The notes below the pieces were generated by a model that had not been told where the DNA came from, did no database searches, and was given only the letters and a program-made list of their open reading frames with translations. Below, one piece after another: positions 176-33,578 of a stretch of 64,000 bases of DNA (position 1 is the first letter of the stretch; the number at the start of each line of letters is the position of its first letter). The translations under genes were made by a program, and so were the position numbers. The stretch is from a marine bacterium B5-7 (GTDB taxonomy: Bacteria; Pseudomonadota; Gammaproteobacteria; BQJM01). The stretch lies in assembly GCA_021604705.1 (NCBI GenBank), contig BQJM01000001.1, positions 8,276 through 72,275 of the forward strand, given 5' to 3'.

Positions 176-1507
176 ATGATAGAGCGACAGATTCTCACAT
201 CACTGCGCCAGTGGAGAGCAGATAAGCAACGTAAACCGTTAATTTTAAGAGGTGCACGCCAAGTAGGTAAAACGAGTGTCGTAGAGCTGTTTGGACAAGA
301 GTTTGATCAATTTATTTCATTAAATTTAGAAATTACAGAAGAGCGAGTATTGTTTGAACGTGAGTTACCCATTGATAAATTAGTGCAGTCTATATTTTTT
401 CATAAAAACTGTACGCGAGACAATAAGAAAACTTTGTTATTTCTTGATGAGATTCAACACTCCCCGGAAGCCGTCGCGATATTACGTTACTTCTATGAAA
501 AGGTCCCCGATCTTTATGTCATTGCGGCCGGATCTTTATTAGAAACGCTCATTGATAAACAGGTGAGCTTTCCTGTTGGCCGTGTCGAATACATGTATCT
601 ATTTCCTCTAAGCTTTCTAGAGTATTTAAAAGCGGTAGGGGAAGTACAAGCTGCAGAGATGCTGCAAGTGAATGAAGTCCCACCAAATTATGCGCATGAA
701 AAACTATTAGGGTTATTTCATCAGTACACGATGATAGGGGGCATGCCAGAAGTTGTCGCGCATTATGCAGAACACCAAGATTTAACAGCGCTACAAAAAA
801 TATATAATAGTCTTTTAGTTGGTTACCAAGATGATGTGGAGAAATATGCTGAGAGTGCGGCACAAGCGCGTATTATGCGTCATATTGTTCGGCATGTGCC
901 TTTAAATGCTGGAGAACGCATTAAGTTTGAAGGCTTTGGGCAATCAAACTATCGATCTCGGGAAGTGGGAGAAGCATTTCGCATGTTAGAAAAATCGATG
1001 TTGCTGCAACTCACTTATCCCACGATCAGAACGGAACCGCCTTTTGAGTCTAACCAGAAAAAATCACCTAGATTACAATTCTTGGATACAGGTTTAATGA
1101 ATCACAGTGTGGGTTTGCAAAAAGAGTTTATTCAATTAAAGGATTTAAATAATTTATATCGTGGAAAATTAACAGAACATATTGTTGGCCAGCAACTGCT
1201 AAGTACCGGATTACTCAAGAATAATGAACTGATGTTTTGGGTACGCGATAAAGCACAATCAAGCGCTGAAGTTGATTTTGTTTTGCCACGAGGCAATATG
1301 CTGTTACCGATTGAGGTTAAATCAGGGGCAACCGGTGCACTACGATCCTTGCACTCATTTATGGAAAGAACCGCTGGAAAGAAAGCCATACGATTGTATG
1401 CGGGAGAGTCTAGCGTTGAAACCATACAAACAGCCAATGGACACAGTTATGAATTACAGCACCTGCCGTATTATTTAGCTGGCGATTGGTTGCTGGAGAG
1501 CGCATGA
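176..1507 (+). CDS. AAA+ (AAA_14-like) P-loop ATPase with a C-terminal PD-(D/E)xK nuclease-like motif (DUF4143-type architecture).
   Basis: Walker A GARQVGKTS (aa 26-33), Walker B LLFLDEIQ (aa 87-94), C-terminal EVDFVL...LPIEVKSG (D367/E380/K382). The stop overlaps the ruvC start codon (ATGA). Confidence 0.7.
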   Translation: MIERQILTSLRQWRADKQRKPLILRGARQVGKTSVVELFGQEFDQFISLNLEITEERVLFERELPIDKLVQSIFFHKNCTRDNKKTLLFLDEIQHSPEAVAILRYFYEKVPDLYVIAAGSLLETLIDKQVSFPVGRVEYMYLFPLSFLEYLKAVGEVQAAEMLQVNEVPPNYAHEKLLGLFHQYTMIGGMPEVVAHYAEHQDLTALQKIYNSLLVGYQDDVEKYAESAAQARIMRHIVRHVPLNAGERIKFEGFGQSNYRSREVGEAFRMLEKSMLLQLTYPTIRTEPPFESNQKKSPRLQFLDTGLMNHSVGLQKEFIQLKDLNNLYRGKLTEHIVGQQLLSTGLLKNNELMFWVRDKAQSSAEVDFVLPRGNMLLPIEVKSGATGALRSLHSFMERTAGKKAIRLYAGESSVETIQTANGHSYELQHLPYYLAGDWLLESA

Positions 1508-10309: not shown

Positions 10310-11962
10310 ATGGATGAGTTTTTTGTTCGCCTCAGTGCGCGAAAAGGATATGCGATAGAGTTGATGTTGACATCACTCTTTGCAAATCTACTTGCGCTTG
10401 CCAGCCCTCTCTATGTGATTCAAATTTTGCAGCGTTATGTTGCGAATGGTGTTGATGGTACCTTAGTCACACTGACTGTTGGTGTGGTCATTGCCATTAT
10501 CTTAGAATTTCTCTTTCGTATGTTACGTAATCGTTTAGCTTCCGCGGTAAGCTTGTATGCCGATCATGTGTTGGCAACGCGCATTTATTCTATTTTTAAC
10601 TGCGCGAAGTACGATCATGTGAATAGAATAAACAAAAGCGTGCGACAAGAGTTAATGCACAGCCTAGATATGATTCAGAATGCGTATAGCGCACAGAATA
10701 TTTGTACCGTACTGGATTTACCTTTCGCGGTTTTATTTCTATTGATGATTACCTTATTAAGTCCTTGGCTAGCATTAATTGTTTGTGTGGCCATTACCAT
10801 CAGTGTGCTGATGGGGTGGTTGGGGCAACGGCCGATTTCGGGACAAAGCAGAGAATTAAACGAAACGAATATTGCCAAAAACAGTTTAGTTTCTTCTACC
10901 ATTGAGAATGCAGATACGATTCGATTGTTTAATGCCTGGCCTCAATTGCAAAAAGCTTGGGATACCATTACTGGCAAATCTCGTGAATTACGCACTTGGT
11001 TGGAAGGGTACCGTGGCGCATTACAGAATGCATCACAATCTTTGACGGCATTAATGACGGTTGCCATTTATGCGGTGGGTGCCAGATTAGTGGTCGGTGG
11101 GCATTTTGATATTGGTGTCTTAATCGGTACGAATATTTTAGCGGCTAGAGCGCTGATGCCGATGTCACGCTTCGCACAGATGGGTGATAGCTTAGTGCGT
11201 GCACAGCAAGCAGAGCAACGCTTAGCAGATTTGCAACGTTTACCCTTGGAGTTAGTGCGAGGTACGGCAAAACGTAATTATACGGGAAAAATTGTTTTTC
11301 ATGATTGTGCTTTTCAGTATCCTGACATGCCCATGCCTTTGTTTGAATCTCTGTCACTGGAATTAACGCCTGGCAGTATCGTTGCGATAAAAGGCCCGAA
11401 TGCGGCGGGTAAAACCTCCATGGCCAAGCTATTACTTTCTTTGATGGAACCCACACGCGGACAAATTCTTGTTGATGATATTGATCTTCGTCAAGTTTCT
11501 GTTGTTTGGTGGCGTCAGCAAGTGAGTTATTTGCCGCAAGATCTTGCGTTTATGAATGCGAGTTTGCAAGACAATTTAATTGTGACTAATCCTGAGACTG
11601 CGCCGGATGTGCTAAATAAAATGATTGAATTAGCCGATCTTCGGGAATTTATTGATAGTAGTGCCGAAGGCTTGAATACACGCTTGAATGATCACGGCGA
11701 TGCTTTATCGCATGGTATTCGAAAACGGATTGCATTGGCGCGTGCGCTGATGACGCAAGGTAATTTAGTGATCCTGGATGAGCCCATGGATAGCTTGGAT
11801 GAGCAAGGCCAAGCTGCAGTGGTGAATGTCCTTGAGGCACTGAAGCAGCAAGGTAAAACGATTTTATTATTTGGCAACGACGAAAAAACGGTAAATTATG
11901 CAGAAACCATTATCGACCTCTCAAAAAAACCAGTCCCAACGGTTACAAAAACAAACGCTTAG
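10310..11962 (+). CDS. Type I secretion ABC transporter ATPase/permease (PrtD/LssB-like, no N-terminal C39 peptidase domain).
   Basis: Six-TM-like N-terminus, Walker A GPNAAGKTS, ABC signature LSHGIRKRIALARAL, Walker B LVILDEP. Confidence 0.85.
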   Translation: MDEFFVRLSARKGYAIELMLTSLFANLLALASPLYVIQILQRYVANGVDGTLVTLTVGVVIAIILEFLFRMLRNRLASAVSLYADHVLATRIYSIFNCAKYDHVNRINKSVRQELMHSLDMIQNAYSAQNICTVLDLPFAVLFLLMITLLSPWLALIVCVAITISVLMGWLGQRPISGQSRELNETNIAKNSLVSSTIENADTIRLFNAWPQLQKAWDTITGKSRELRTWLEGYRGALQNASQSLTALMTVAIYAVGARLVVGGHFDIGVLIGTNILAARALMPMSRFAQMGDSLVRAQQAEQRLADLQRLPLELVRGTAKRNYTGKIVFHDCAFQYPDMPMPLFESLSLELTPGSIVAIKGPNAAGKTSMAKLLLSLMEPTRGQILVDDIDLRQVSVVWWRQQVSYLPQDLAFMNASLQDNLIVTNPETAPDVLNKMIELADLREFIDSSAEGLNTRLNDHGDALSHGIRKRIALARALMTQGNLVILDEPMDSLDEQGQAAVVNVLEALKQQGKTILLFGNDEKTVNYAETIIDLSKKPVPTVTKTNA

Positions 11963-13346: not shown

Positions 13347-16300
13347 TTAACCACCACCATCAGTGAAGACGTTTGCATTTAAGTCGTTAACGTTATTGCT
13401 CAAGTTGTCAGACTCGATGGTTGCGGTGACATTTCCTTCTGAATCTTTAAAGATGATTTGTCCACCTGATAAATCATTGTCTTTACCATCATCTGTTGAG
13501 AAAAAGCCCTCTAAAGTAACGGAATTTCCCTCAGAATAGGTGAGCACCAAATCATTTGCATCTTCCTGTGATAAGCTCGCAGTGATTTGTCCTTTCGTTA
13601 AGCCAATAAACGTCACGTCATCTTGGCCATTATTATAAGCAGCTGAAATCGTATCGTTTCCGAAGTCACCTTCAAAAATAAAATTATCGTCGCCAACTTC
13701 AGCAGTTTCTGAAACAAGACCCGTGAAGGTATCGTTGTTTGCACCATCTCCGTTACCAGTACCTGCAGGACCACCTAGATAAGCGACGCTATCTTTTGTT
13801 GCATCAGCCCAAGGGTTACCACTGCCGAGTTCTTGATTGACTGTTTCAAGGCTGCCATCGTAGTCAAAAGAGCCATCAGCAATTTTACTCCGAACACCAT
13901 TTTCACCAAAGAAGTCTAAAATGGTGATAACGTTATTATCTTGGTCGCCTGCAAATCTTAACTCAAGGTGGTTATTGTCTGGGCTAGAAAACGCTAAGAT
14001 ATCTGCGCTGCTGTTTGCTCCGTGGAACAGTAGGTTGTGTCCTGTGCCTGTCGATAAATCTAAGGTGATGTTACCGATGTCGCCATCAAGAAAGTTGATC
14101 TCAATAGTTTCATTGTCACCATTGGTTTCAAATGTTCGATCGTTGTTATCAGGTGCTGCGCCAATTTCTACGTCGGGAGCTCCCTGTTGCTCACCTTCAC
14201 CTTCACCTTGTGGTTCACCACCGCCGTTACCTTGATTTATATCTAATATATCCTGAGGAAGATTGCTTGGTTGAATGTATTCAAGGTTGTCAGGCACTTC
14301 ACTATCAGTCGCGCCTAACCAAGCGATAGTGTTAGCATCTCCCATGTTATTACTGTCAGGAATGATGGTTAATACTTTTAGCGCTGAATGCGTTGGTGCA
14401 TTGGCATCTTCTGCTGAGTAATAATTTTTGAATGTCACACTAGTATTGGCGTTGCCATAGGTGAAGACTAAGTCATGAGAGTTCTCACCGCTTTTTGTTG
14501 CACTCAGGTCGCCGGGTAGGATGTTGAGGAAATTCACGTTAATCGTGCTACCGACAGTCTGTGGGTTAATCGTGATATCGCCAATGTCGCTGGAGAAGTC
14601 GATGTTAAAAGTGTAGTTGCCATCAGCATCGTCACGTGCCTCCACCGTGTCATCGTGACCAATGTTTACCGTGAAGGGTTCGCTTGGCTCTGGGCTTGGC
14701 TCTGGAGTTGGCTCTGGAGTTGGCTCTGGGCTTGGCTCTGGGCTTGGCTCTGGAGTTGGCTCTGGGCTTGGCTCTGGTTCACCAAGTTCTTGGTTTGCTT
14801 CTATTTGCGTGGCGACTTCTGCCAAGGTTGCGGTTGAGTCATCTTGGAAAGTAAACGTCAAACCTTGATGATCCTGTGCATCATCAATACTAATGCTGCT
14901 ACCATCGCTAAAGAAAATAGTTTGACCGCCATCTTCATTGTTGTTAACCGACTGTAGATCTGAAATATCTCGATCTGCCAAGTCAATGGTATCATTACCA
15001 GAAGACTCTTCTGAAAATTGGAAAGCTTTATTGCCAAAATTACCGCTTAAAATAATGGTATCATCACCTTCTCCGCCAATGATGGTATCATCACCCGCGC
15101 CGGGTATAATGGTGTCGTTACCCTCACCACCAATGATAATGTCAGCGCCAGATGTACCCGTGATAGTATCATTACCATTACCACCGACAAGAAAAGTACC
15201 GCTGTGACTCTCAGTGGGGGTGAAGCCGCTGTAATCAATCGTACTACCACCATCTTCAGCTAGCACAATAATTTGTGTGCTACCCTCAGGACGACCACCT
15301 TCAGTAAAATTATTTTCCTCTGTGATGTTAATAGTGGTATCGTTGAGAGTAAAGAATATCTTATCAAGTGCTGCTGTATTGACAGTGAGTGATGGGTCTC
15401 CCACTACGTCACTGGGGTCTAAACCATTAAAGACTTCGATTGTTTCACTATTATCTGCACCGCGCGTTAATACGAATTGATGGTTATCCCAGTTTTCAAA
15501 CAACACGGTGTCATTTTCTCCAAGACCATTAATGTCGATATTGCCAGACACAACATCTTTTTCAATCGTGAATACGTGATTGTCTTCAGTACTCGTATAA
15601 GTCGTTGCCTCTAAAATCTTTGTTGAGTTTTCTTCATCGATGACGACCTCTTGGAATAAACTTTCTAAGTTTTGTATGCCGGCTCTAAAATAATCACCAG
15701 GGTTATAGTGAGAAGAGCTATCATGATCATCCCAGCGATCTTTGTCATTGTCTTCTCTCTTAAGGTAATGATCTTTCATGTCTTCGAAATAGTGATCTTT
15801 ACTCTCGAATTCTGTTTGGATAAGTTTACCTGCGAAGTCGCCAAGGGTGTTGTAAAGATCATCCAAGAATGGCATTGGCTCAAAGCCTATTTCGCCAGGA
15901 TCCATACCAGGCGGCATCCAAGGGAGATCTCCTTCTATGCCGGGACCCATACCAGGATTCCAAGGTTCATGTCCGCCCATGCCCATACCCATACCAGGAT
16001 TCCAAGGTTCATGTCCGCCCATAGAAGGATCCCAATGAGGTTCTCCAGACTCTCCAAAGAATCCGCCTTTCTGAATCATATCGGTCATGCCGCCTTTGAA
16101 AGGATCAAAGCTCGCATCGAACCAATCGTCATTGCTATGTTGCCAATTAGCATCGCCGGGCATAAAGCCTTTGTGATCACCGGGCATATGATTAGACATC
16201 ATGTCGTACAGAGCTTTCGAACCCATATTCATGTCATGGGTCATACCTTCCGGCATGTTTGTCATCATGTCGTGGAACTCAGGGGGCATATTATCCATGT

Positions 16301-16889
16301 AATCATTTGTATATTGATTCGCAAATTCATGCGCAAGCGGATCCAAGTTTTGCATGAAGTTATTTTTCATGTGAGTCTGGAATTCTGGCATGTTTTTTTC
16401 GAACTGTTCTCTGAATTGATCTGCAAACTCAGGCATCTCATTTAAGTCTATCTTATGTTTTTCAGCGGTTTTTGTGAGTGCTTGATTAAATAAATCGTCT
16501 ACCGTTTTTTCATTAAACATGCCGTCCACAGTGTTCCATGCGGCTTCTTTGATATCATGCGCGGCTTTATTGTGAAGGTTTTGCATGAAGGCAGGTAATT
16601 CTGTTGCATCAGCATCACCAGCAGTCGTCGGCGCATTGTCTACATTCGCTTCAGCATGTTCCGCAGGTGCTTGACCAGCTTGGGGGTGTTCGCCTGCCTG
16701 AGGCGCTTGTTCCTTAGCGATGGGTTGATCTTCGTCGCCGTGGATTTCATTAGTTGCCGCATTATCATGGGGCTCTAAATGTTCTTGAGGCCCAAGTTGA
16801 TGGTCATCAACATCTCGATCATTCGACACCTTGTTATTTGCCGCATTGTTGTTTGCAGCACCAGTGTTGTCTTGCTCAGCCATGATCAT
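13347..16889 (-). CDS. Large RTX (repeats-in-toxin) calcium-binding protein and probable type I secretion substrate. Acidic N-terminus, Met/His/Pro/Gly-rich segment, GGxGxD nonapeptide block, (PEPS/PEPT)n linker, C-terminal repeated beta-roll-like modules.
   Basis: GGNGNDTITGTSGADIIIGGEGNDTIIPGAGDDTIIGGEGDDTIIL (aa 568-615); EPEPSPEPTPEPSPEPSPEPTPEPTPEPSPEP (aa 703-737); Met-rich aa 160-345. Convergent to the T1SS genes. The SD AGGAGA abuts the first ATG, so the ATG 6 nt downstream (about 16883) is the more likely start. Confidence 0.85.
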   Translation of the reverse strand: MIMAEQDNTGAANNNAANNKVSNDRDVDDHQLGPQEHLEPHDNAATNEIHGDEDQPIAKEQAPQAGEHPQAGQAPAEHAEANVDNAPTTAGDADATELPAFMQNLHNKAAHDIKEAAWNTVDGMFNEKTVDDLFNQALTKTAEKHKIDLNEMPEFADQFREQFEKNMPEFQTHMKNNFMQNLDPLAHEFANQYTNDYMDNMPPEFHDMMTNMPEGMTHDMNMGSKALYDMMSNHMPGDHKGFMPGDANWQHSNDDWFDASFDPFKGGMTDMIQKGGFFGESGEPHWDPSMGGHEPWNPGMGMGMGGHEPWNPGMGPGIEGDLPWMPPGMDPGEIGFEPMPFLDDLYNTLGDFAGKLIQTEFESKDHYFEDMKDHYLKREDNDKDRWDDHDSSSHYNPGDYFRAGIQNLESLFQEVVIDEENSTKILEATTYTSTEDNHVFTIEKDVVSGNIDINGLGENDTVLFENWDNHQFVLTRGADNSETIEVFNGLDPSDVVGDPSLTVNTAALDKIFFTLNDTTINITEENNFTEGGRPEGSTQIIVLAEDGGSTIDYSGFTPTESHSGTFLVGGNGNDTITGTSGADIIIGGEGNDTIIPGAGDDTIIGGEGDDTIILSGNFGNKAFQFSEESSGNDTIDLADRDISDLQSVNNNEDGGQTIFFSDGSSISIDDAQDHQGLTFTFQDDSTATLAEVATQIEANQELGEPEPSPEPTPEPSPEPSPEPTPEPTPEPSPEPSEPFTVNIGHDDTVEARDDADGNYTFNIDFSSDIGDITINPQTVGSTINVNFLNILPGDLSATKSGENSHDLVFTYGNANTSVTFKNYYSAEDANAPTHSALKVLTIIPDSNNMGDANTIAWLGATDSEVPDNLEYIQPSNLPQDILDINQGNGGGEPQGEGEGEQQGAPDVEIGAAPDNNDRTFETNGDNETIEINFLDGDIGNITLDLSTGTGHNLLFHGANSSADILAFSSPDNNHLELRFAGDQDNNVITILDFFGENGVRSKIADGSFDYDGSLETVNQELGSGNPWADATKDSVAYLGGPAGTGNGDGANNDTFTGLVSETAEVGDDNFIFEGDFGNDTISAAYNNGQDDVTFIGLTKGQITASLSQEDANDLVLTYSEGNSVTLEGFFSTDDGKDNDLSGGQIIFKDSEGNVTATIESDNLSNNVNDLNANVFTDGGG
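14688..14782. repeat. Tandem 12-nt DNA repeat (CTTGGCTCTGGG/GTTGGCTCTGGA, about 8 copies) encoding the PEPS/PEPT linker of the RTX protein.
   Basis: Seen directly; the plus-strand ORF GSGLGSGVGSG is its mirror artefact. Confidence 0.85.
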
Positions 16890-27608: not shown

Positions 27609-27724
27609 CCTTTGAGGAGATAGCGACTATGGTGGATTTTAACGCGGCGCATACCACAGAAACCCAACATAACATGACGGGTGCGACCTCCATTGAGGTG
27701 ACTGATGCAGAGGATAAACATCCA

Positions 27725-30700
27725 ATGAAGGATGTTCCTTTCATGAGTGATTTATTGAGTTTTGTCACCCCAGAACAGCAACGCCAAGCGTTGACTGGCC
27801 TGAAGATTTCAGTGGCATCACCCAAAGAAATTTTGGCGCATTCATTTGGTGAAGTAACTAAACCAGAAACAATTAACTACCGAACGTATCGACCAGAACG
27901 TGATGGTTTATTCTGCGCAAAAACCTTTGGTCCTATCAAGGATTATGAGTGTTTGTGTGGTAAATATAAGCGTTTAAAGCATCGTGGTGTGGTCTGCGAG
28001 AAGTGTGGTGTTGAAGTTACCTTGTCGAAAGTGCGTCGTGAACGTATGGGTCATATTACCCTAGCGTGTCCTGTTGCCCATATTTGGTTTTTGAAATCAC
28101 TTCCTTCACGTATCGGTCTATTGTTGGATATGACGCTGCGTGAGATTGAACGTATTTTATATTTTGAAGCCTTTGTTGTGGTTGATCCTGGCTTAACCGA
28201 TCTTGAACGCGGACAACTACTGACAGATGAAAATTATATTGAAGCTATTGAGCAGTATGGCGATGACTTTGATGCGCGGATGGGTGCGGAAGCCATTCAG
28301 CAATTATTGTTAAGCGTCGATCTTGAGGAAGATGCGGTTAATCTCCGCGAAGAGTTGGCATCAACGACGTCTGAAACACGTATTAAAAAGATTAGTAAAC
28401 GTCTTAAATTAGTGGAAGCATTTATTGGTTCAGGTAATCGACCTGAATGGATGGTGATGGAAGTATTGCCTGTGTTACCACCAGATTTGCGTCCATTGGT
28501 TCCCTTGGATGGCGGTCGTTTTGCGACATCTGATTTGAATGATTTATACCGTCGTGTGATTAACCGTAATAATCGTTTGAAACGTTTATTAGAGCTTAAT
28601 GCCCCTGACATCATCGTGCGAAATGAAAAACGTATGTTGCAAGAAGCGGTGGATGCTTTACTCGATAATGGTCGACGTGGTCGTCCAATTACGGGCACGA
28701 ATAAACGCCCATTGAAATCTTTGGCTGACATGATCAAAGGTAAGCAAGGTCGTTTCCGTCAAAACTTATTAGGTAAACGTGTCGATTATTCTGGTCGTTC
28801 CGTTATTGTTGTTGGGCCTACCTTAAAATTACACCAATGTGGTTTGCCGAAGAAGATGGCTTTAGAGTTGTTTAAACCCTTTATTTTCAGCAAATTAGAG
28901 TTACGTGGCTTGGCGACAACGATTAAAGCTGCGAAGAAAATGGTTGAAAAAGGTAGCCCTGAAGTTTGGGATATTTTGGAAGAAGTGATTCGCGAACATC
29001 CGGTACTATTAAACCGTGCACCAACACTACATAGATTGGGTTTACAAGCTTTTGAGCCTGTCCTCATTGAAGGTAAAGCAATTCAATTGCATCCTTTGGT
29101 TTGTGGTGCATTCAACGCCGATTTCGATGGTGATCAAATGTCTGTGCATGTGCCGTTAACTATTGAAGCACAGCTCGAAGCGCGTGCATTGATGATGTCG
29201 ACGAATAATGTCTTATCACCTGCGAATGGTGAGCCGATTATCGTACCATCACAAGATATGGTCTTGGGCTTGTATTACATGACGCGTGAAGCAATCAATG
29301 CGAAGGGTGAGGGCATGGTCTTCTCTGATGCAGAAGAAGTAATGCGTGCCTACCAAACGGGCGTGGCATCGTTGCATGCTAAAATTAAAGTGCGCTTGAA
29401 TGCAAAAAATACGGGTGATGATGCCGACATAGAGTTAGTGGATACGACGATTGGCCGTACCATCGCTTTTGGTATTTTCCCGGAAGGTTTGCCGTTTAGT
29501 TTGTTAGATCAACCTCTGACGAAAAAACGTATTTCATTCTTGATTAAGACATCTTACCGCTCCATTGGTCTGAAAGAAACGGTTATTTTTGCCGATCATT
29601 TGATGTATACCGGTTTTCATTATGCGACACGTGCCGGTGTTTCTATTGGTGTGAATGATTTAGAAATACCTAAAGAAAAAGCGAATATCATCCAAGGCGC
29701 GCAGGATCAGGTGCGTGAAATTGAACGACAATATTCCTCTGGTTTGGTGACACAAACAGAGCGTTACAATAAAGCGATTGATATTTGGGCGCATACCAGT
29801 GAACAAGTGGCTCGCGCGATGATGAATGCAATTTCTAAAGAGGAAGTCGTTAATAAATCGGGTGAAACAGTCATACAGGATTCCTTTAACTCAGTCTTCA
29901 TGATGGCTGATTCTGGCGCCCGGGGTTCTGCTGCGCAGATTCGTCAGTTAGCGGGTATGCGGGGTTTGATGGCAAAACCGGATGGCTCGATTATTGAAAC
30001 ACCGATTACAGCGAACTTCCGTGAAGGTTTGAATGTATCGCAATACTTTAGTTCAACGCATGGTGCGCGGAAAGGTTTGGCGGATACCGCGTTAAAAACA
30101 GCGAACTCTGGTTACTTAACGCGTCGTTTGGTCGATGTGGCACAAGATTTAGTGGTTGTCGAAAGAGATTGTGGTACAGCACACGGGATCACATTGTCTG
30201 CCTTGATTGAAGGTGGTGATGTGGTTGAACCTTTGCATGAACGTGTATTGGGTCGTGTACCTATGCATGATATTTGTGTGCCAGGCTCAGAAGAAGTGGC
30301 TATCGAAGCGAATACTTTGCTGACGGAAGAGTTGGTTGAGAAAATTGAGGCGATGGGACTTGATCAAATCGTTGTGCGATCTGCTATTACCTGTGAAGCG
30401 ACTTACGGTGTATGTAGTTTATGTTACGGTCGTGATTTAGCACGCGGACATCAGATTAACCCAGGTGAATCTATCGGTGTGATTGCAGCGCAATCCATTG
30501 GTGAGCCGGGTACACAGTTAACGATGCGTACTTTCCATATTGGTGGTGCGGCGTCTTCAACATCGGCAGTTAGTAGCGTTCAAGTGAAAGCAAGTGGTAA
30601 GGCCAAGTTCAATAATGTGAAAGTGGTTGAGCATGCGAATGGCCATTGGGTAACGGTTTCACGTTCATGTGAAATTGTGATGACGGACAAACAGGGTCGT

Positions 30701-32116
30701 GAGCGTGAAAAATATAAATTACCTTATGGTGCCAATTTGACGGTGGCTGATGGTCAATCTGTAGAGGGTGGCCAAGTGATTGCAACGTGGGATCCACACG
30801 TACATCCGATTATTACAGAAGCGGCGGGTTTTGTGCAGTTTGTTGACTTCGTTGATGAACAAACCATGAAGCGCCAAGTAGATGACACAACAGGCTTGTC
30901 TAGCATTGTGATTATCGATGCGAAACAACGTGGCGCGAAAGATTTACGTCCGATGATTCGTTTGCTTGATAAAGATGGTAATGAGCTTTGCTTGCCAGGT
31001 ACCAATGTGCCGGCGCATTACTTCTTGCCGATAGATGCCAGTGTTCAATTAGATGATGGCGCGGAAGTTGGCGTGGGTGATGTGCTATCACGTATCCCGC
31101 AAGAATCTTCAAAAACGCGTGATATTACGGGTGGTTTGCCACGGGTTGCGGATTTATTCGAAGCACGTACGCCGAAAGATGCTGCGATTTTGGCAGAAAC
31201 ATCGGGTCTTGTGAGCTTCGGTAAAGAAACCAAAGGTAAGCGTCGTTTAGTGATTACAGAGGCTGGCGGCGAAGTCCATGAAGAATTGATTCCGAAATGG
31301 CGTAGCATCATTGTCTTTGAAGGTGAGCACGTTGAGAAAGGGGAAACCGTTGTTGATGGTGCGGCAAATCCACACGATATTTTGCGCTTGCAAGGGGTGG
31401 AAGCCTTATCTGATTACATCACTAACGAAATTCAAGAGGTGTATCGTTTACAGGGTGTGAAGATTAATGACAAACATATCGAAGTGATTGTTCGTCAGAT
31501 GTTACGTAAAGTACGTATCACGTCTTCGGGTGATTCAAAATACTTGCCGGGCGAACAGGTTGAGTTTACACGTTTGCGACAGGTTAACCGTGACTTACAA
31601 GCGGAAGGTAAGCAGCCAGCGTTGTTTGACCGGGTCTTGTTGGGGATAACGAAAGCATCCTTGTCGACAGAATCTTTCTTATCTGCGGCGTCATTCCAAG
31701 AAACGACCCGCGTGTTGACGGAAGCGGCTGTGAGCGGTAAGTGTGATGAATTGCGTGGTTTGAAAGAAAATGTATTGCTTGGCCGTTTGATTCCTGCAGG
31801 TACAGGCTTGGCATACCATCAAGCATGTATGAAAGCGGAACAAGCAGCGAAAGAATCTGCACAGAAGAGCGAGCTAACGGCACAAGACGTTGAAGACGCA
31901 TTGAGCCTGGCTTTGGGTGGTAATGCCGGTGGCACGCCAACCTTGAGTGCTGATGATGCTTTGGGTGCTGCATTGTCTGGCTTGGATGCCCCTGCATCTG
32001 TTGAGCCAGCGCCTGCACCAGCACCAGCAGCGCCACCTGTATTTGGTGCGGCACCAATGCCCCCGGTGCAGGATAAACCTGCAGGTGAGGGTGACGCACA
32101 GGAAGGTTCTGAGTAA
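27725..32116 (+). CDS. rpoC: DNA-directed RNA polymerase beta-prime subunit, with an Ala/Pro-rich C-terminal tail of about 70 aa.
   Basis: The conserved N-terminus begins near [14 protein letters not shown]...[31 protein letters not shown]. The ORF-track start 27629 is probably upstream of the true start (27725 or 27743). Zinc-binding CxxC motifs and NADFDGD are present. Confidence 0.9.
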
Positions 32117-32162
32117 AATCACTGCCATCCCGTGCTGCTGTTACTTGCTAGTGTTACCAGGA

Positions 32163-32192
32163 AACCCCGGCCAAGTGCCGGGGTTTTTACCG
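32163..32192 (+). terminator. rpoC rho-independent terminator (CCCCGGCCAAGTGCCGGGG followed by TTTT).
   Basis: Seen in sequence. Confidence 0.75.
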
Positions 32193-32465
32193 GTTCGGTA
32201 TGCCTTTCAAAAAGACGCACACTAACTGCCGTCCATGGCGCTCGACGCTGGCATCCCTGCCGCCGACGCTTTTTGAATACACTTAACCACAACTCCCTGA
32301 ACAACCCGGCATGCAGGATGCTGCGTGTCGTTTTTTCGCGGCGAGAATACGTTTGATAAGTAGCGATTTTTTCACAATGTTTCTCCGGGTTTCATCGGTG
32401 CGCACCAAAAACAGGTGCTGATGCCGCAATCAGCAGAATGAGCGTGTTTCGCTGCTAAAATGCGT

Positions 32466-32954
32466 TTAATCAGTTGTTGCTTCATTTTCATTATCCTCTA
32501 AATATTCTTTAAACCATAATTGTAAGGTCTCGGGACCAAGATTATCGTAAACATAGGATAGCCACTTTGCAAATTCATCATTAAGAATGGACTCAGCATT
32601 TTCTTTAAAGTGTTGCTTTTCAGATTCGCTGGTGGGCTGGTGATGGATGAAGTGGCCAAAGTGGGTTTTGCCGAAATCCATGTAATCCCGGGTAAATAAA
32701 ATGAAGGTATGCCACATGTCATCGACTTCGCTAAATTCTGGCTGCATGTAGGATTTAAATTGTAAATCGGGATTATTGGGCGTAGCGGCCAAATCTGAGC
32801 GGTGCTTAGCATTTAGCCAGAGGAACTTCATGAGTTGGGCAAAGGCCTCTTCAGCAGAGAGCGTATTGCCTGGATAATCCACACGATAGCGAGCTAATAT
32901 CTCAGGATAGTCTAGCGCGAGTAAGGCGTTTAGCTGAGGGAGGCATGTTTGCAT
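32466..32954 (-). CDS. 162-aa hypothetical protein inserted between rpoC and rpsL in opposite orientation. His-rich motif WHTFILFTRDY...HFGHFIHH, possibly DUF1399/glycine-rich-domain-like.
   Basis: Clean ORF with ATG start in an otherwise universally conserved rpoC-rpsL junction. Motif resemblance is low confidence. Confidence 0.5.
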   Translation of the reverse strand: MQTCLPQLNALLALDYPEILARYRVDYPGNTLSAEEAFAQLMKFLWLNAKHRSDLAATPNNPDLQFKSYMQPEFSEVDDMWHTFILFTRDYMDFGKTHFGHFIHHQPTSESEKQHFKENAESILNDEFAKWLSYVYDNLGPETLQLWFKEYLEDNENEATTD

Positions 32955-33063
32955 GAGCAGCCTTTTGTTCCTGTCAATGTTGGTGGATTGTATTATTATT
33001 TATCACTCCAGGTCAAGCACTTTAGAGACCTTTGGATAAATCCTACGATTGCCTGCCGATCGC

Positions 33064-33092
33064 TTGACAATAGGGTGGTGCATCCGTAGAAT
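33064..33092 (+). promoter_or_regulatory. str operon promoter TTGACA-17-TAGAAT upstream of rpsL.
   Basis: Near-consensus hexamers with a 17-nt spacer, about 100 nt upstream of the rpsL ATG. Confidence 0.7.
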
Positions 33093-33191
33093 TCGGCCTC
33101 CCATCCTTGTGGGTGGCCCATATTTCAGCGTTTTTCGTCGTGTAGGTTTATGCGGCAAAGTGGCGCTTTTGTGTAATTTTGGAGAGGCTTG

Positions 33192-33578
33192 ATGCCAAGA
33201 ATTAACCAACTAGTAAGAAAGCCGCGCGCTAGTCGCCGGACGAAGAGTACGGTACCTGCCCTGAAGCGCTGTCCGCAGCGTCGTGGGGTATGTACTCGTG
33301 TGTATACCACCACCCCGAAAAAACCGAACTCAGCGATGCGTAAGGTCGCCCGTGTTCGTTTGACTAGCGGCTACGAAGTGCCCGCGTACATCGGTGGTGA
33401 AGGCCATAACTTACAAGAGCACTCTGTGGTCTTGATTCGTGGTGGTCGTGTGAAGGATTTACCGGGTGTTCGTTATCACGTTGTACGGGGTAGCTTGGAT
33501 ACTGCTGGGGTCTCTGGTCGTAATCAGGGTCGTTCTAAGTATGGTGCTAAGCGCCAGAAAGGCGACAAGAAAAAGTAG
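33192..33578 (+). CDS. rpsL: 30S ribosomal protein S12.
   Basis: [27 protein letters not shown]... Confidence 0.96.

Follow-up and report, generated by a model that had tools for sequence, protein, structure and literature searches.

The rpoC–rpsL interval and its reverse-strand gene

We analyzed a stretch of 64,000 nucleotides from the marine bacterium B5-7 (contig BQJM01000001.1, positions 8,276 to 72,275 of the forward strand; hereafter, the window), with attention to one open reading frame (ORF), 162 amino acids (aa) in length, that lies on the reverse strand between rpoC and rpsL. The gap in which it lies is bounded by the rpoC stop codon at 32116 and the rpsL ATG at 33192. The window contig is identical to contig L001, and L002 is a sister metagenome contig whose RpoC is 96% identical. 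The features of the interval, in window positions, were as follows.

27629–32116, plus strand: rpoC, encoding the beta' subunit (1495 aa; GJM06298.1), identified from the ORF list and an exact protein match; it converges on the 162-aa ORF.
32160–32192, plus strand: intrinsic terminator of rpoC, a GC-rich hairpin with a U-tract, predicted by folding and conserved in L002.
32193–32465, no strand assigned: 3' spacer from the terminator to the stop codon of the ORF, mostly non-conserved filler, assessed by folding and comparison with L002.
32466–32954, minus strand: gene of the 162-aa protein (GJM06299.1, 'hypothetical protein DHS20C10_00330'; PF27765), identified from the ORF list, homologs and the ratio of nonsynonymous to synonymous substitution rates (dN/dS).
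32987–33016, minus strand: putative sigma70-like promoter of the ORF, TTGACC-18-TACAAT, matching 10 of 12 positions in a consensus scan, with hexamers conserved in L002.
33064–33092, plus strand: predicted promoter of the str operon, TTGACA-17-TAGAAT, matching 11 of 12 positions in the consensus scan and conserved in L002.
33192–33578, plus strand: rpsL, which encodes S12 and opens the str operon (rpsL-rpsG-fusA-tuf), identified by the Pfam match Ribosom_S12_S23 in L001.

Among the further flanking proteins, GJM06301 is S7 and GJM06302 is EF-G. The ORF, which begins with ATG, was found where the original prediction had placed it, between the rpoC terminator and the str promoter, and both of these elements were recovered as well. 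Its protein bears the motif ...DDMWHTFILFTRDY...HFGHFIHHQP, and the signature WHTFILFTRDY...HFGHFIHH noted earlier is present in the translation.

In folding analysis, the plus-strand hairpin of the rpoC terminator (32160–32188) had a free energy of −23.2 kcal/mol (z −2.84), and the minus-strand fold of the same region gave −25.2 kcal/mol (z −3.78). Because the element folds equally well on both strands, it could halt transcription from either direction, making it a candidate for a bidirectional terminator that rpoC and the 162-aa ORF share; an Rfam scan gave a weak terminator-like match at 32157–32188. The sigma70-like element of the ORF, located ~26 nt upstream of its ATG, is divergent from the str promoter, back-to-back with it at a distance of 48 bp, and we infer from its sequence that it works as a promoter.

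Comparison with homologs revealed that the 162-aa ORF is a genuine gene under purifying selection. Fourteen homologs, with E-values from 1e-90 to 1e-3, were detected in a word-indexed protein search; the one in L002 is the closest, at 87% aa identity, and the nearest beyond this sister contig is 53% identical. When 1.84 billion cluster representatives were searched exhaustively with a profile, 7,406 clusters (at 50% identity) matched at E<=1e-3, of which 2,201 reached E<=1e-10 and 178 reached E<=1e-30. L002 contains the same order of features, namely rpoC, terminator, reverse-strand ORF, two divergent promoters and rpsL-rpsG, and the start region of the ORF is conserved between the two. The ORF and its ortholog in L002 differ with dN 0.078 and dS 0.73, corresponding to a dN/dS of 0.106, and the ratios for the neighbors in the same comparison were 0.041 (rpoC), 0.026 (rpsL) and 0.078 (rpsG). 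An ortholog at the same site at this dS indicates that the placement is old and predates substantial divergence. The AlphaFold2 model, built on a 15-sequence alignment, was all-alpha with nine helices (predicted local distance difference test score, pLDDT, 88.4; predicted template modeling score, pTM, 0.83).

Scans of the ORF against local copies of Pfam, NCBIfam, PADLOC and PHROGs returned nothing significant, in the case of Pfam because PF27765 is newer than the copy scanned. The empty local Pfam, NCBIfam and PADLOC scans would agree with a spurious antisense ORF in non-coding DNA, but this explanation was refuted by the thousands of homologs, the low dN/dS, the confident structural model and the conserved start region and promoter, and we assign it a negligible probability.

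The 273 nt at 32193–32465 had been described as about 270 nt of structured non-coding sequence preceding the ORF; relative to the direction of the gene, however, it lies 3' of the ORF. The fold of the whole spacer was no better than those of dinucleotide shuffles (plus strand, z +0.21; minus strand, z +1.06), L002 lacks ~113 nt of it (32335–32447) and another 27 nt, the Rfam scan of the junction detected no family, only sub-threshold noise, and a tRNA scan detected none in the spacer. Since the spacer folds like shuffled sequence, is mostly missing in L002 and contains no Rfam or tRNA match, the claim of structure was unsupported. Local terminator-like hairpins were present at 32307–32330 on the plus strand and 32416–32435 on the minus strand. 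The sole spacer block that is well conserved with L002, at ~32288–32319 (CCACAACTCCCTGAACAACCCGGCATGCAGGA), includes the 5' arm of the plus-strand hairpin, which is followed by T6 (32307–32336) and could serve as a back-up terminator of rpoC. Short ORFs in the spacer (48–74 aa) were rejected as genes, the region being largely deleted or divergent in L002.

Family membership and origin of the gene

The precomputed Pfam annotation of the identical L001 protein assigned it to PF27765 ('UCP032817-like', E<=1e-5), and the same family is carried by all listed homologs, both the initial 14 and a later set of 120. The gene is an ordinary conserved-hypothetical member of this catalogued and common bacterial family, a result that the original prediction had named as speaking against itself. 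Across 138 diverse members, D78, W81, Y91 and P107 (window numbering) are invariant, and M80, H82, F84, L86, T88, F94, G100, H104, H105, L139, G140 and W147 are conserved in at least 90%. The family core reads D-x2-WH[TE]F[IL]L-x-T-x2-Y ... G-x3-HH-x-P, in members of ~140–190 aa, and in both the 15- and the 138-sequence alignments the window protein bears the core residues D78, W81, H82, Y91, H104, H105 and P107. It is the same as other members in length, fold and motifs; only the rpoC–rpsL address and an acidic C-terminal tail are peculiar to the window lineage.

Named members of the family occur in Legionella, Cystobacter, Polyangiales, Kofleriaceae, Pseudoalteromonas, Tenacibaculum, Phycisphaerales, Streptomyces and Amycolatopsis. 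With one degenerate motif, 438 family loci were confirmed among the GTDB species representatives, and the best 80 of these by similarity comprised 45 from Legionella/Legionellaceae/Tatlockia and 7 from Coxiellaceae (52/80 Legionellales), 17 from unclassified gammaproteobacterial metagenome-assembled genomes (MAGs), and the rest from Myxococcales and other Deltaproteobacteria, Bdellovibrio-like bacteria, Obscuribacterales/Sericytochromatia and Babeliales. Many Legionella species contain two or three copies; L. pneumophila has two in its core genome, all labelled hypothetical, one of which is UniProt Q5ZYD8. Metagenome scans for close and intermediate relatives found none above 49% identity, neither single-sequence nor profile searches of the PDB gave a match, and literature searches brought up no paper on UCP032817, PF27765, B5-7 or Q5ZYD8. 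One member is plasmid-borne (L093; Legionella sp. D16C41 plasmid unnamed1), which indicates that the family can travel on mobile replicons, though the window copy bears no such sign.

Analysis of RpoC relatives placed a metagenome contig (79% identical) and a MAG (74%) after L002, followed by a broad range of Legionellales at 72–73%; B5-7 is a deep gammaproteobacterial lineage nearest the Legionellales. Since its RpoC is nearest to those of Legionellales, the center of gravity of the family matches the organism's own neighborhood.

The original prediction regarded the gene as foreign and as possibly horizontally acquired and eukaryote-like. However, its GC content of 0.425 (window, 0.450) and third-position GC content (GC3) of 0.448 lie within the ranges of the other 40 window genes (0.41–0.52 and 0.29–0.57, respectively), and it ranks 12th of 41 window genes in codon-usage log-likelihood. 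Repeat and tRNA scans revealed no repeats, tRNA or mobility genes (integrase or transposase) flanking the ORF, and the 64-kb window contains no second copy. The ORF is thus not a recent foreign or eukaryotic import but is compositionally native, with a family that is typical of its own clade: the 7,406 clusters belong to a bacterial family, whose closest members are mostly from Legionellales.

Recent acquisition of a foreign eukaryote-like gene of the DUF1399/GRDP type into the rpoC–rpsL junction nevertheless has some observations on its side, namely the placement unique to this lineage, a divergence faster than that of the neighboring genes (dS 0.73, dN 0.078), the 53% identity of the nearest homolog outside the sister contig, a giant-virus GRDP-like protein as the top fold match, and F-box and ankyrin eukaryote-like genes elsewhere in the window. 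We consider this explanation very unlikely, since those true eukaryote-like genes are compositional outliers whereas the 162-aa ORF is typical in GC, GC3 and codon usage, no mobility signature was found, a same-site ortholog exists in a genome at dS 0.3–0.7, the family is overwhelmingly bacterial and centered on Legionellales, and the protein has neither a PF07173 match nor a glycine-rich or RNP-1 region. The interpretation as a foreign eukaryote-like insert can be dropped in favor of a native gene parked at an operon boundary.

Of ~175 loci inspected, only the window (= L001) and L002 have the ORF beside rpoC and rpsL; the ~170 other family loci are elsewhere in their genomes, none of them near rpoC/rpsL or other translation or transcription genes. 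A reverse-strand gene in the rpoC–rpsL gap is therefore unusual, as had been proposed, in the sense that the placement is lineage-specific. Synteny in relatives gave a mixed picture: the gene is kept in L002, but it is absent from the site at RpoC identities of 79% (L011/L175), 74% (L012) and 73% (L013/L014). This patchy presence is equally compatible with an old relocation.

The statement that the junction is normally compact and gene-free held for one Legionellales MAG (RpoC 73%), in which rpoC is followed by an empty gap of 418 bp and then rpsL, but not for the two nearest outgroups, which have unrelated genes and no adjacent rpsL. In the 79% outgroup, rpoC is followed by four accessory or unknown genes, including an AAA_14/DUF4143 ATPase, and then by mazG-relA, rpsL being absent over 10 kb; in the 74% MAG, it is followed by a flavoprotein gene, an HbpS-like gene and an 815-aa ORF. 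Because the rpoC–rpsL boundary is empty, occupied or broken among relatives, the terminator-to-promoter gap between the two operons is a permissive landing or rearrangement site in this clade. The rpoBC/str boundary is permissive and rearrangement-prone, being empty in one relative, holding this gene in two, and broken or occupied in two.

A small gene with its own promoter in the rpoC–rpsL gap is not surprising, and the address is unremarkable. Short genes lie in this gap in other bacteria as well, an example being ybxF/rpl7Ae of Bacillus subtilis, which is co-oriented with the str operon and encodes a ribosome-associated protein of the L7Ae family. The window ORF resembles ybxF in lodging between rpoC and rpsL, but it lies on the opposite strand, has its own predicted promoter and belongs to an unrelated family.

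The location between two operons that are among the most highly expressed, with promoters 48 bp apart and transcription converging on the rpoC terminator, could also suggest a position-dependent regulator of rpoBC termination or str expression, acting as a protein or by antisense or divergent transcription, or a binder of RNA polymerase or the ribosome. Such a role is highly improbable: the spacer is unstructured and not conserved, and 0 of the ~170 other family loci are near rpoC, rpsL or transcription or translation genes, which indicates that the function of the family is not tied to the rpoC–rpsL neighborhood.

Taken as a statement of identity and arrangement, a native PF27765 gene at a lineage-specific operon boundary is very probable. 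The explanation that we favor overall, which is probable to a slightly lesser degree, is that a PF27765 gene entered the rpoBC–str gap in the common ancestor of the B5-7 MAG and one sister species, by intragenomic relocation or by old acquisition into a permissive operon boundary. The single-copy gene would form its own transcription unit, read from the predicted sigma70-like promoter that stands back-to-back with the str promoter, and its transcription would converge on rpoC, with a probable end point in the local hairpins or in the rpoC terminator, used in both directions. Weighing against this explanation, the use of the promoter and the terminator is predicted from sequence, and the gene may have been acquired horizontally in the distant past, with its composition ameliorated since then.

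Proposed methyltransferase partners and the Asp/His motif

Analysis of longer family matches revealed fusions with methyltransferases in both orders: P0143 consists of a TPMT followed by the PF27765 domain, P0147 of the domain followed by a TPMT that exceeds the NCBIfam TPMT cut-off, and P0145 is a truncated version. The domain was also joined to other class-I S-adenosylmethionine-dependent methyltransferases (P0199, P0227) and to a GT4 glycosyltransferase (P0213), and it was tandemly duplicated in P0138, P0150 and P0159.

Immediate neighbors were clustered for 84 genome loci, and 80 independent metagenome loci were inspected in addition. A TehB-like methyltransferase of ~203 aa was a neighbor at 13 of the 84 loci, arranged divergently in Legionella, where it adjoins L. 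pneumophila Q5ZYD8, and with a 4-bp co-directional overlap in Coxiellaceae and Babeliales; co-directional overlap of a methyltransferase gene with the family gene was also seen in soil metagenome contigs. Over genome and metagenome loci together, a methyltransferase lies directly beside the family gene in 23 of ~170, and a TPMT/TehB-like gene follows it immediately in L037 (4443–5060), L041 (984–1592) and L089 (4423–5037). Other recurrent neighbors at the 84 loci were regulators of the HxlR (15) and LysR (17) types, the latter overlapping the family gene in two MAGs, as well as cytochrome P450 and CsiD/TauD dioxygenase; the P450 gene overlaps the stop codon of the family gene in three distant taxa (L070, L082, L083). 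Bacterial thiopurine S-methyltransferase (TPMT, Tpm) and TehB-type methyltransferases would be partner enzymes of family members, to which they are fused in both orders or which they adjoin; the window ORF itself, unlike TPMT and TehB, has no methyltransferase fold.

The recurrent methyltransferase, P450 and LysR/HxlR operons and the fusions look metabolic, which argues against the idea that the protein is a host-targeting effector, secreted through a type IV system by a Legionellales-like bacterium with an intracellular life. That explanation would suit a family that is multi-copy in many Legionella and occurs in Coxiellaceae, Babeliales, Bdellovibrio-like bacteria and Obscuribacterales, many of them protist- or prey-associated, and likewise the acidic, polar tail of the window protein (...EYLEDNENEATTD), the F-box and ankyrin proteins encoded by the organism, and the giant-virus protein as best structural match. 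However, free-living bacteria have the family as well (Streptomyces, Amycolatopsis, Pseudoalteromonas, Tenacibaculum and myxobacteria), the C-termini, where a Dot/Icm secretion signal (E-block) would lie, vary across 80 members, most of which lack the acidic tail and end just past the ...WF motif, and literature searches turned up nothing on the L. pneumophila homolog. We regard an effector role as improbable, if slightly less so than a foreign eukaryote-like origin.

The residues D78, H82, H104 and H105 plausibly form a metal site. Together with the methyltransferase links, the D/H/H/H/Y constellation makes a metal- or ligand-binding partner or enzyme the most economical hypothesis. We tentatively suggest, as a reading that is possible and still doubtful, a small cytoplasmic all-alpha protein with an Asp/His cluster (D78, H82, H104, H105, Y91) that binds a metal or ligand, from a family that would work with TPMT/TehB-like methyltransferases, at times also with P450 or dioxygenase enzymes, to modify or detoxify some small molecule (thiol, chalcogen or electrophile), and that would be a distant cousin of GRDP. 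A stronger version, in which PF27765 is an obligate partner of TPMT/TehB-type methyltransferases (a metal/chalcogen-binding subunit or a small enzyme) and a bacterial cousin of plant and fungal GRDP/DUF1399, with the window copy as a stand-alone paralog, is somewhat less likely still. If it were true, solving the activity would give the first biochemical function to both PF27765 and GRDP/DUF1399.

Several observations count against extending these functional readings to the window copy or to GRDP. None of the genes next to the window copy encodes a methyltransferase, P450 or regulator, and neither a TPMT nor any other methyltransferase is present in the 64-kb window. In a neighbor-joining tree, it grouped with stand-alone copies of uncultured Gammaproteobacteria and not with the methyltransferase- and HxlR-linked Legionella subgroup; because it lies outside the methyltransferase-linked subgroup, the functional inference holds at the family level only. 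On the side of GRDP, a search with the hidden Markov model of PF07173 matched none of the window protein, 15 alignment members and 5 named members (E<=1 to 10). The best match of the AlphaFold2 model among viral structures (BFVD), a 138-aa Harvfovirus 'Glycine-rich domain-containing protein-like', was marginal (Foldseek probability 1.00, E 8.5e-3, TMq 0.45, TMt 0.51, 20% identity).

The suggestion of a DUF1399/GRDP-like fold accordingly stood in part. It was favored by names, some PF27765 members being called 'glycine-rich domain-containing protein' by NCBI and UniRef, and weakly by the Harvfovirus structure match at a TM-score of ~0.5; against it stand the missing PF07173 match and a composition of 4 Gly in 162 residues without a glycine-rich or RNP-1 region. 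No PF27765 member was found in a scan of viral contigs, so the Harvfovirus protein represents a different family. The W-H-containing helix motif of DUF1399 looks similar to the D-x2-WH helix of PF27765. Distant kinship between PF27765 and GRDP-like/DUF1399 proteins at the level of the modeled fold is plausible. The window ORF differs from plant GRDP in being bacterial rather than of plant or fungal type and in length (162 vs 787 aa); the plant protein AtGRDP2, of 787 aa, has a C-terminal glycine-rich domain and an RNP-1 motif (PMC4299439). The link of the family to TPMT/TehB-like methyltransferases is reproducible and that to GRDP/DUF1399 is faint, and the two provide a testable route to function for two uncharacterized domain families.

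Other features of the window

Genuine eukaryote-like domain proteins are encoded elsewhere in the window: an F-box protein at 51929–52636 on the plus strand (PF12937, E 2e-10; PF00646, E 5e-7), an ankyrin-repeat protein at 62098–62637 on the minus strand (Ank_2, E 5e-18) and, with a weak match that stays below the cut-off (21.8 bits), an F-box-like ORF at 62723–63598 on the minus strand. All three are compositional outliers of the window, and those at 62098–62637 and 62723–63598 deviate most in GC and codon usage (GC 0.50–0.51, GC3 0.54). These genes are typical of Legionellales-style host-targeting effectors and, as candidates for eukaryote-like genes that were acquired, surpass the 162-aa ORF.

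Three paralogous AAA_14/DUF4143 ATPase genes are located at 176–1507 (plus strand), 53063–54238 (plus strand) and 59612–60745 (minus strand). A gene of this type follows rpoC in the nearest outgroup (L011/L175, 14898–16202), and another, at 10518–11552 in L004, lies 2 kb from the family gene. Such genes may mark variable or insertion-prone spots in the clade.

RpoC itself is 1495 aa long, compared with ~1400 aa in Legionella, and has an N-terminal extension (27629–27760) and an Ala/Pro/Gly-rich acidic C-terminal tail (31850–32116), for which the coding DNA is locally GC-rich (0.56–0.57). The extension is retained in the sister contig (1478 aa). An ORF of 1180 aa at 13347–16889 on the minus strand, possibly encoding a secreted protein, had an RTX calcium-binding repeat (E 2e-7) as its only family match.

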